DNA from: a virus
Lineage: Duplodnaviria > Heunggongvirae > Uroviricota > Caudoviricetes
DNA: 64,000 nt
IMG/VR virus record: IMGVR_UViG_3300043418_000226
Direction: 5' to 3' (one strand)
Positions 29,476-30,545 of this stretch are shown piece after piece; the first letter of the stretch is position 1; every line of letters starts with the position of its first letter. The notes under the pieces were generated by a model that was not told the DNA's origin, ran no database searches, and saw only the letters and a list, made by a program, of their open reading frames with translations. The position numbers and the translations under genes are program-made.

Positions 29476-29507
29476 ACAAAAAAAAAGTCAGAATTTCTTC
29501 TGACTAA
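29476..29507 (-). terminator. intrinsic terminator (minus strand)
   Basis: minus-strand reading gives AGTCAGAAGAAATTCTGACT hairpin followed by T9. Confidence 0.6.
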
Positions 29508-30495
29508 ATTTGAGGTCGAACGGTTTTTAAAATCGTTTCGGGTTCCACCACTTAGTTTTATGAAAACTAAGAAAATTAGAGAAGAAATCTGGAATTGAAC
29601 CAGAACCTTAAATCTTTCGATTTTAATGCAAATCCTCGGATTTTTACCGTTACACTATTTCTTCGTTTAAACTCTGAGATTACAAGTTTTAATAATTGAC
29701 TTTAGAGACATTATTGTTTCTTCTCTTATCCACAGTCTTTTGAACTGTACCAATCAGTGACGGTCAATTAGATTAACCAATCCTAAAGTTACTGAATACT
29801 CTCTTTGTACTTGTTTCTTTATAACGGTGCCCCGCTAATCAAGAACTTTCTAAAAAATCACATTGGGTTTGACCCCGTTATGGCCGTGAACAACTCACGA
29901 CTATGTAGTCACCTGTTTCCAGTAACTGACGAACACTTTTTCTTTTGTTTCTTTAAGTTTTTGATAAAAATTCAAATTTTATAAGTTGTGGATTTGGAAA
30001 GTAGTGGTCCGTCAACCAGCCACGCCATCTTTTGAACGACATGATACTAAACTACTCTCTGAAGTCTCCCGACCTCCATATTTTTGGTCCCCTTCAAAAC
30101 TGAGCCCTTGGTAGAGTCCAATTAAGGATAGTAACAGCACCACCTGTTTTCTATCATACCTTTCGGTTTTAAGATTACCATTATATTGAATTACGCAATT
30201 GTAAGATTGGAAGTCCTACTTCTCACATTAATTCTACAAGTTATTCTTATTAGTGTTCCCACCTCAACCAAACGACCCACATCGCTTAGTCACCAAATCA
30301 TGTTCCCTATAGTGTTACCCTCGGTAATAAAGATTCAACGATATCTTGCTTGCCTACTCAAGTTCTATTTCTAAAACCGCAATCTACCTTCAACTAAAAG
30401 TAAATCACTTTATCCCACTTTCATGGTTTATTTCAATGACCATAGGCGGCCAATATTTTTAATTCAAAGAACGTTTTCTTTTTTAGAAACCTTTA
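29508..30495 (-). ncRNA. candidate large structured noncoding RNA (identity unknown)
   Basis: about 1 kb with no ORF of 60 aa or more on the minus strand; bounded by a promoter at 30511-30518 and a terminator at 29476-29507; locally higher GC; tRNA-like 3' module near 29590-29680. Confidence 0.3.
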
Positions 30496-30504
30496 ATCTG
30501 ATTT

Positions 30505-30545
30505 CTTTTACAAAGATAAATAAAATTTTTTAAAAAACAAAATTA
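30505..30545 (-). promoter_or_regulatory. Bacteroidetes-type promoter module
   Basis: CTTTTACAAAGATAAATAAAA with a -33 TTTG 20 nt upstream on the minus strand. Confidence 0.6.

Follow-up and report, generated by a model that had tools for sequence, protein, structure and literature searches.

The 64,000-nt stretch of viral DNA analysed here (IMG/VR record IMGVR_UViG_3300043418_000226, Caudoviricetes; hereafter the window) carries on its minus strand a transcription unit of about 1.03 kb without long open reading frames (ORFs). The unit is bounded by a promoter (30511-30541) and an intrinsic terminator (29476-29507). Between them lie, in the direction of transcription, a 5' leader of about 50 nt (30455-30506), a 5' domain (30060-30454), a 3' domain (29671-30059), a degenerate tRNA-like element of 86 nt (29579-29664) and a conserved trailer (29508-29578). 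The two domains form a GOLLD RNA gene of about 785 nt (30454-29671), and we regard it as virtually certain that the ORF-free kilobase is a full-length member of this known family. A first-pass annotation, made without database searches, had proposed a large structured RNA within a promoter-to-terminator unit, and both the match to GOLLD and the covariation among relatives bear this out.

A scan of the whole window with Rfam at gathering thresholds matched GOLLD (RF02032) at 29671-30059 on the minus strand with 273.4 bits (E = 6.7e-77), against a gathering score of 150 bits. The match spans model positions 1-416 of 416 and thus the full model, which describes only the conserved 3' half of the RNA; the 5' half lies outside it. 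The total length of about 785 nt fits the range of about 700-850 nt for GOLLD RNAs. The GC content is 0.35-0.415 over 29700-30400, compared with 0.245-0.30 in the flanks, in agreement with the local enrichment noticed in the first-pass annotation. The GC-rich segment that was quoted there corresponds, in reverse complement, to the first hairpin of the 3' domain (about 30008-30038).

In a permissive Rfam scan of 29440-30560 (E <= 5), GOLLD and tRNA were accompanied only by chance-level matches (snR62, Hrs12, wcaG and Plastid-ycf2), all far under their gathering scores. Matches to group I or group II introns, RNase P, 6S or ROOL were absent from that interval at this threshold, and no intron or RNase P family matched at the gathering threshold anywhere in the window. 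An Rfam search naming GOLLD and ROOL had been suggested as a check, and it resolved the identity of the RNA as GOLLD. The earlier idea of an RNase-P-like RNA finds no match, and that of a novel phage small RNA or ribozyme cluster gives way to a known family at 273 bits, whose 5' domain is homologous to that of env-38, a marine metagenome GOLLD of known structure (JCVI_SCAF_1096627009515:1239-410; PDB 9MEE; Kretsch et al., Nature 2025, PMC12286853). The RNA is not new in kind. It is a previously unannotated copy of a known family in a typical setting, with minor variations that consist of the loss of one hairpin (P21a) and a degenerate tRNA-like tail. Because the known family explains it, the locus should be annotated as GOLLD.

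For comparison we used 114 GOLLD loci, made up of two phage records and 112 loci on viral contigs that were retrieved by a pattern derived from invariant stretches of the 3' domain (individual loci carry L numbers below). The 5' domain occupies the 395 nt upstream of the Rfam match, and blastn finds it to be similar in 102 of the 114 loci. It resembles the corresponding regions of the GenBank phages LR745206 and LR756502, and it aligns to env-38 from the first nucleotides (env-38 sequence from PMC12286853, Supplementary Table 4). A GAAA tetraloop at 30422-30419 within this domain holds the adenosines that correspond to the inter-subunit bridge B1, and the GAAA loop L11a is also present. Among 185,579 species genomes, the GOLLD subtype of the window was found in one, on a contig of a metagenome-assembled genome (MAG) of Flavobacterium.

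Both domains have a structure that is supported by covariation. In an alignment of 46 sequences with less than 93% mutual identity, the RNAalifold consensus fold of the 5' domain comprises 99 pairs, which are 97.2% canonical and of which 71 show compensatory double changes. When the 3' partner was shifted by 1-3 columns as a control, only 21-28 pairs appeared compensatory. The 3' domain comprises 84 pairs (98.3% canonical), 53 of them compensatory versus 12-26 in the shifted controls. The window copy itself keeps 97 of the 99 pairs of the 5' domain and 78 of the 84 pairs of the 3' domain canonical. The first-pass annotation had named the absence of conserved structure as grounds for giving up the idea of a structured RNA; the 71 and 53 compensatory pairs show the structure to be present.

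Within the 3' domain, after its first hairpin, an A/U-rich, variable linker of about 64 nt (J13/15; 29945-30008) has a predicted fold of -0.9 kcal/mol with z = +0.14 and is predicted to be unstructured. Its posterior probabilities against the linker of the Rfam model are low, and it contains no embedded tRNA, unlike the linkers of some mycobacterial GOLLDs. The equivalent linker of env-38 is disordered and directed into the interior of the cage (PMC12286853). The leader at 30455-30506 holds two weak A/U-rich hairpins whose fold (-7.9 kcal/mol, z = -1.7) is not significant; the first 12 nt of the leader (TAAAAGAAATCA) show conservation across several lineages. Relative to most relatives, the hairpin P21a with its loop L21a is deleted from the 3' domain, with 16 nt gone between 29837 and 29838. 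This is visible in the Rfam alignment and in multiple alignments. The identical deletion occurs in L005, L082, L083 and L102 and is not found in the closest relatives overall, L108 and L049.

Transcription is predicted to start at about 30506 +/- 3, downstream of a promoter that consists of a -33 element TTTG (30541-30538), a 19-nt spacer and the -7 box TATCTTTG (30518-30511). The first-pass annotation had rightly picked out the latter as a promoter module; it is the -7 box of an enriched bipartite motif, TTTG-N19-TAnnTTTG, that occurs 17 times in the window when 5.95 +/- 2.5 occurrences are expected. None of 100 shuffles reached 17, and 13 of the 17 motifs lie on the minus strand. Sites matching the sigma-70 consensus are not enriched in the window (10 versus 12.1 expected). 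The bipartite -33/-7 motif TTTG...TAnnTTTG is typical of Bacteroidota (sigma-A type), and we take the GOLLD promoter of the window to be of this type.

The promoter motif is conserved along with the gene. It lies within 400 nt upstream of GOLLD and on the same strand in 36 of 65 unique loci, with a background of 0.09 per 400 nt, and in the closest relatives it stands 37-55 nt upstream. An exact 19-nt stretch, TCTTTGTAAAAGAAATCAG, also precedes GOLLD in L002, L041 and L071. Taken at its full extent of 19-23 nt, (TA)TCTTTGTAAAAGAAATCAG(A), this stretch covers the -7 box and the first transcribed bases (window 30497-30518, minus strand) and recurs at position 2712 of L002, 4616 of L041 and 2706 of L071, 974-1239 nt before the 3' motif. 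These contigs are otherwise about 70% identical, and the conservation is unusually strong for a promoter.

At the other end of the unit, the terminator reported by the first-pass annotation at 29476-29507 is well founded. It has the form AGTCAGAA-GAAA-TTCTGACT followed by T9, with an 8-bp stem (29505-29486), a folding energy of -9.8 kcal/mol and z = -3.2, and an identical hairpin stands at the same place in L108, L049/L081 and L017. The unit is non-coding. As the first-pass annotation had stated, the transcribed strand has no ORF of 60 or more amino acids: the only ORF of at least 30 amino acids with an ATG, GTG or TTG start inside the unit is 43 amino acids long, and the longest stop-free stretch is 67 codons (code 11).

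Given the conserved architecture, it is interesting to consider whether the RNA could assemble as other GOLLDs do. The env-38 RNA forms a closed 14-mer with D7 symmetry that was solved by cryo-EM; its 3' domains form the equatorial rings of the cage and its 5' domains the caps, and ten inter-subunit bridges (B1-B10; residues in Supplementary Table 2) hold it together (PMC12286853). We read these bridges from an alignment of 65 unique full-length GOLLDs with env-38. The env-38 text taken from the PDF supplement is short by about 17 bases (816 versus 833 nt), so the numbering was rebuilt with local offsets, which were tested against the residues that the interaction table lists.

At nine of the ten bridges, the window copy has conserved or co-varied key residues. 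Those of B2 (G140-G142, A145 and C146), B3, B5 and B9 (the G675-C676 self-kissing loop) are identical, as are the A-minor adenosines of B1 (the GAAA tetraloop), B6 (A447/A448) and B10 (A763/A764). The receptor pair of B6 co-varies. At B7, positions 547/617 are A-U in the window and in env-38, G-C in 46 relatives and C-G in 18. The kissing loop of B4 keeps its GGA/UCC core, with residues 251-253 not reliably placeable, and the same holds for the B1 receptor residues 588/589 and 603/604. Only B8 is absent, with the deletion of the P21a hairpin and its palindromic L21a loop.

The window copy and env-38 share the two-domain layout, the type of the 5' domain, the A/U-rich unstructured linker and an adjoining tRNA-Met-type gene, and they can be aligned from the first nucleotides (ATGGCCGCTATGGTC versus TTGGCCGCCTATGGTC) to the last hairpin (GUAAUCUCAG). 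Their nucleotide identity is about 56-60%, a lower bound given the missing bases of the env-38 text. They differ in length (about 785 nt versus 833 nt), in the loss of P21a/L21a from the window copy and in its shorter P10 and P11a stems. The tRNA-type element is downstream and degenerate in the window; env-38 itself is described as lying downstream of a Met-tRNA.

A second structure bears on the missing hairpin. The GOLLD of Streptococcus agalactiae (cryo-EM, PDB 9L0R; PMC12990946) has a single P21 hairpin with one equatorial self-kissing loop and forms a 12-mer, so a cage is possible without the full P21a/P21b pair. That RNA is about 700 nt long, with a different, reduced 5' domain, and it lacks P9, P11a-c and P21b; the window copy, in contrast, keeps an env-38-type 5' domain and has lost P21a rather than P21b. 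According to a 2026 review, L21a-L21a'' is one of the two equatorial kissing loops that are particular to env-38, and differences in peripheral helices alter the number of subunits in GOLLD oligomers (PMC12990946). We consider it likely that the window copy forms an RNA cage, and given the loss of P21a its stoichiometry may differ from 14.

Similar architecture is known from ROOL (RF03087), which also occurs in phages and prophages near tRNA islands and forms an RNA-only dihedral cage with a disordered internal linker (PMC12286853). The two RNAs are unrelated in sequence and secondary structure, and ROOL has no match in the window. The only GenBank phage records with DNA-level similarity, at about 69%, are LR745206.1 and LR756502.1, from huge uncultured phages of 635 kb and 642 kb. 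Both carry a full-length GOLLD (275-287 bits) with the same 5' domain type and, immediately 3' of it, an aberrant tRNA-like element whose anticodon loop has 6 nt, and LR756502 shares the 19-nt promoter/leader stretch. In contrast to the window copy, both retain P21a, have an insertion of 20-40 nt in the 5' domain and lack the hairpin-containing trailer (H1-TGGTGGAA-H2) that follows GOLLD in the window.

The tRNA-like element at 29579-29664 (minus strand) starts 6 nt past the end of the Rfam GOLLD match and 9 nt past the TAATCTCAG motif. The ARAGORN call is tRNA-Met(CAT) and the score with the Rfam tRNA model is 34.9 bits (gathering score 29), so the tRNA-like 3' module seen in the first-pass annotation, with its GAAGAAA/TTTCTTC acceptor and TCTGG-TTCAATT-CCAGA T-arm, is recognised by both programs. 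The 7-bp acceptor stem and the T-arm are perfect. The D-stem has 2-3 pairs, and the anticodon stem contains an A.A mismatch or else closes on a loop of 6 nt; in the 7-nt-loop reading, G and U occupy positions 33 and 37. tRNAs have U33 and a purine at position 37. The Rfam alignment covers the acceptor and T-arm well and skips most of the D and anticodon arms, and the minimum-energy fold (z = -2.8) is not a cloverleaf. Because the element lacks the features of a cloverleaf tRNA (a 7-nt loop, U33, a purine at 37, stable D and anticodon arms), we file it as tRNA-like rather than as a tRNA.

In 14 other loci the next tRNA on the same strand lies 12-26 nt after GOLLD. Thirteen of these are tRNA-Met(CAT); the remaining one, in LR756502, is an unusual tRNA whose anticodon loop has 6 nt. 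Judged from these loci, the slot directly 3' of GOLLD recurrently holds a tRNA-Met-type gene, which has degenerated in the lineage of the window. The tRNA-like genes that directly follow GOLLD in the two huge phages lie at 3837-3910 in L002 (LR756502.1) and at about 3855-3950 in L001 (LR745206.1). Their anticodon loops are of 6 nt (TTTTCA, TTTTCG) or, read otherwise, of 8 nt (CTTTTCAG). The LR745206 element has a D-loop insertion of roughly 22 nt, as judged by eye, and is called by neither ARAGORN nor Rfam.

An exact search for the element found nothing among the viral contigs, and among metagenome contigs it returned one true relative, L115, and 11 unrelated sequences that share only the T-arm. 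L115 (JACCDH011769341.1) is a 1.8-kb metagenome contig whose positions 1-730 are 99.2% identical to window positions 30170-29441, an interval that takes in the 3' part of GOLLD, the tRNA-like element and the trailer. Differences between the two cluster at one place only, a 3-base flip in the D/anticodon region of the element, where CCGAGG is replaced by its own reverse complement, CCTCGG.

The element could nevertheless function as an ordinary tRNA (Met, fMet or lysidine-modified Ile2), merely co-transcribed with GOLLD and without a link to its processing. The ARAGORN and Rfam calls speak for this, as do the normal-looking tRNA-Met(CAT) genes in the same slot of 13 other loci and the fact that GOLLD genes often adjoin tRNAs (PMC12286853). 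Against it stand the weak D-stem, the mismatched stem or 6-nt loop, the G33 and U37 and the non-cloverleaf fold, together with three better tRNA(CAT) genes elsewhere in the window (62-64 bits), the 3-base flip in L115 and the 6-nt anticodon loops of the counterparts in both huge phages. We therefore consider a working, merely co-transcribed tRNA improbable, and the element is probably not a decoding tRNA.

We tentatively suggest, without being inclined to bet on it, that the tRNA-like element is a processing signal for GOLLD, such that RNase P, cutting at the 5' end of the element, would leave GOLLD with a defined 3' end. The acceptor/T-arm minihelix is recognised by RNase P. tRNA-like 3'-end processing signals are known from MALAT1/mascRNA in vertebrates and from the tRNA punctuation of polycistronic transcripts. 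By analogy with MALAT1/mascRNA, a tRNA-shaped element that keeps the acceptor/T-arm minihelix would stand directly 3' of a long non-coding RNA. The analogy differs in that the closest GOLLD relatives (L108, L049/L081, L065/L006, L017 and L082/L083) have no such element, so GOLLD 3' ends can form without it.

A bolder and rather unlikely possibility is that large Bacteroidota phages contain a GOLLD lineage in which the tRNA-Met gene often found after GOLLD has become a non-decoding mimic, which would serve as an RNase P handle or as a ligand that stays attached to the cage. Such a mimic would keep the acceptor and T-arm, with an anticodon arm that is degenerate or has a 6-nt loop, a state seen in the window and, independently, in LR745206 and LR756502. 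Together with the loss of P21a, it would define a distinct subtype of GOLLD.

As to GOLLD itself, the missing P21a and the degenerate tRNA-like element might be taken as signs of a decaying pseudogene from which no functional RNA is made. We consider this very unlikely. The helices of both domains are nearly all canonical in the window copy, its score of 273 bits is on a par with those of relatives, and its promoter and terminator are intact and conserved. The P21a deletion is kept in the separate contigs L005, L082, L083 and L102 with the other helices intact, and the single-P21 RNA of Streptococcus agalactiae still assembles (PMC12990946).

Two further explanations have practically no chance of being correct. 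Phage tRNA genes with group I introns exist, and the complementary GAAGAAA/TTTCTTC ends and the T-arm had led the first-pass annotation to propose a tRNA gene interrupted by a self-splicing intron (group I, or equally group II), with the large RNA as the intron; the two acceptor strands, however, stand within 86 nt of each other and belong to one uninterrupted tRNA-like element, the large RNA is a full-length GOLLD located entirely on the 5' side of that element, and no intron family matches at E <= 5. The other is a protein read with a reassigned stop codon, which the first-pass annotation had named as grounds for giving up its idea and which was worth checking because a tRNA with a CTA anticodon of the suppressor type (30846-30919) lies just upstream, at about 300 nt. 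TAG is a rare stop (TAA ends 38, TGA 4 and TAG 3 of the 45 ORFs of at least 150 amino acids). A protein is contradicted by the lack of any long frame on either strand (at most 71, 78 and 91 codons on the transcribed strand with read-through of TAG, TGA and TAA, and at most 138 on the other, this only with read-through of TAA, the stop of 38 of the 45 long ORFs) and by substitutions among the 46 relatives that are compensatory in helices rather than codon-periodic.

A conserved trailer of about 70 nt (29508-29578, minus strand) separates the tRNA-like element from the terminator and consists of hairpin H1, the invariant TGGTGGAA, hairpin H2 and G[A/G]CC(C). The same order of elements is found just 3' of GOLLD in eight unique near relatives, the carriers being L108, L049/L081, L065/L006, L017, L033/L082, L005/L102 and L083, and the stems of H1 and H2, read directly from the sequences, covary among them. 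The trailer matches no Rfam family (best 20.7 bits versus a gathering score of 70), and its fold has z = -1.6. Pairing of TGGTGGAA with the GOLLD linker was considered and rejected, as the complementarity, judged by eye, is inconsistent across relatives.

The reverse complement of the trailer ends in TTCCACCA, which resembles the 3' end of a tRNA or tmRNA. In seven other loci (L003, L018, L021, L038, L093, L107 and L111), the same motif, TGGTGGA, forms the actual 3' end of a convergent tmRNA-like gene about 115-340 nt after GOLLD. The trailer might be a relic of a tmRNA end; no acceptor partner or T-arm for such an end was found in the window.

The neighbourhood of the gene is rich in translation-related RNAs. 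The window contains 27 tRNA and tmRNA genes according to ARAGORN and Rfam, among them at least 25 tRNA genes, a tmRNA and the CTA-anticodon tRNA. The latter (30846-30919, minus strand), of the amber-suppressor type, is labelled 'Pyl' by ARAGORN, scores 58.4 bits with the Rfam tRNA model and lies about 300 nt upstream of the GOLLD promoter. A tRNA array of about 25 genes, all on the minus strand, extends over 34710-41824; two further tRNAs (39200-39272 and 40017-40084) were found by Rfam and missed by ARAGORN, and Bacteroidota-type promoters with the extended consensus TTTGTTTATTAAAAA...TATCTTTGTAAAA occur within the array, at 39949-39979 and 39380-39410.

A tmRNA gene (27271-27679, minus strand) follows GOLLD at a distance of about 2 kb on the downstream side, with an Rfam score of 72.6 bits and, according to ARAGORN, the tag peptide ATSNVAVV*. 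With ARAGORN, tmRNA genes were found within 2.7 kb downstream of GOLLD, on either strand, in 11 loci including the window, which suggests that the association of GOLLD with tmRNA genes is recurrent.

Two protein-coding genes flank the unit. Directly downstream of the terminator, 28701-29444 (minus strand) encodes a calcineurin-like metallophosphoesterase of the MPPED2 type (Pfam PF00149; E = 1e-40 to PDB 3RL4), and the start of this protein (MR[IL]..ISD[TH]H) also follows GOLLD in L108, L049/L081, L065/L006, L082 and L083. Upstream, between the suppressor-type tRNA and the tRNA array, 31029-32954 (minus strand) encodes a protein of 641 amino acids with an SPFH/Band-7 domain (PF01145, E = 2e-27) and an N-terminal hydrophobic segment.

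No near-identical match to the window was found in the GenBank phage collection, and its nearest relatives are viral contigs and huge phages. A tRNA-Glu of the window is 93% identical to one in Flavobacterium phages. Taken together with the occurrence of the subtype in a Flavobacterium MAG and the type of the promoter, this indicates that the source is a large phage with a Bacteroidota host.

We consider it very likely that the explanation is right in its core, a GOLLD gene in a promoter-terminator unit, with assembly of its RNA into a cage likely and a tRNA-like processing signal only tentative. In this scenario, host RNA polymerase would start at the -33/-7 promoter (about 30506) and stop at the terminator (29505-29476). 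The RNA would fold into two separate domains joined via the unstructured A/U-rich linker, and about 12-14 copies would build a closed dihedral cage of RNA alone, with the linker pointing to its interior, as in the structures of env-38 (14-mer) and of the Streptococcus agalactiae RNA (12-mer). With P21a, and hence B8, missing, only the L21b self-kissing loop (B9) and an A-minor contact (B10) would keep the two half-shells together, and the number of copies may for this reason not be 14.

Several points weigh against parts of this explanation. In the window and most relatives the B4 kissing loop keeps three of its five Watson-Crick pairs, the placement of the B1 receptor is unreliable given the gapped env-38 text and the locally rebuilt numbering, and with P21a deleted the closure and copy number of the cage are not predictable from sequence. 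The processing role of the tRNA-like element is purely inferred, and the element is dispensable for GOLLD because the closest relatives do without it. A role in translation is deduced from the gene neighbourhood alone.

From the perspective of phage biology, GOLLD is known to be located near tRNA islands in phages and its expression rises during lysis (PMC12286853). The gene neighbourhood described here, together with published ribosome pull-downs (cited in PMC12286853), favours a role for GOLLD in the takeover of translation by the phage during lytic growth. The recurring link between GOLLD, a tRNA-Met gene or its mimic and a tmRNA suggests that the function of GOLLD should be sought in translation.

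GOLLD RNAs are among the largest non-coding RNAs of bacteria and phages, and their RNA-only cage was discovered only recently. The copy in the window is a clean natural variant with an env-38-type 5' cap, one deleted equatorial hairpin and a tRNA-shaped tail, and such variants are useful as tests of cage closure because small differences in helices change the stoichiometry of the published structures. If the tRNA-like element were indeed a mimic that stays attached, the cage would display 12-14 tRNA-shaped ligands to ribosomes or tRNA-binding factors, and the mimic together with the loss of P21a would make this a structurally and functionally distinct subtype of GOLLD.

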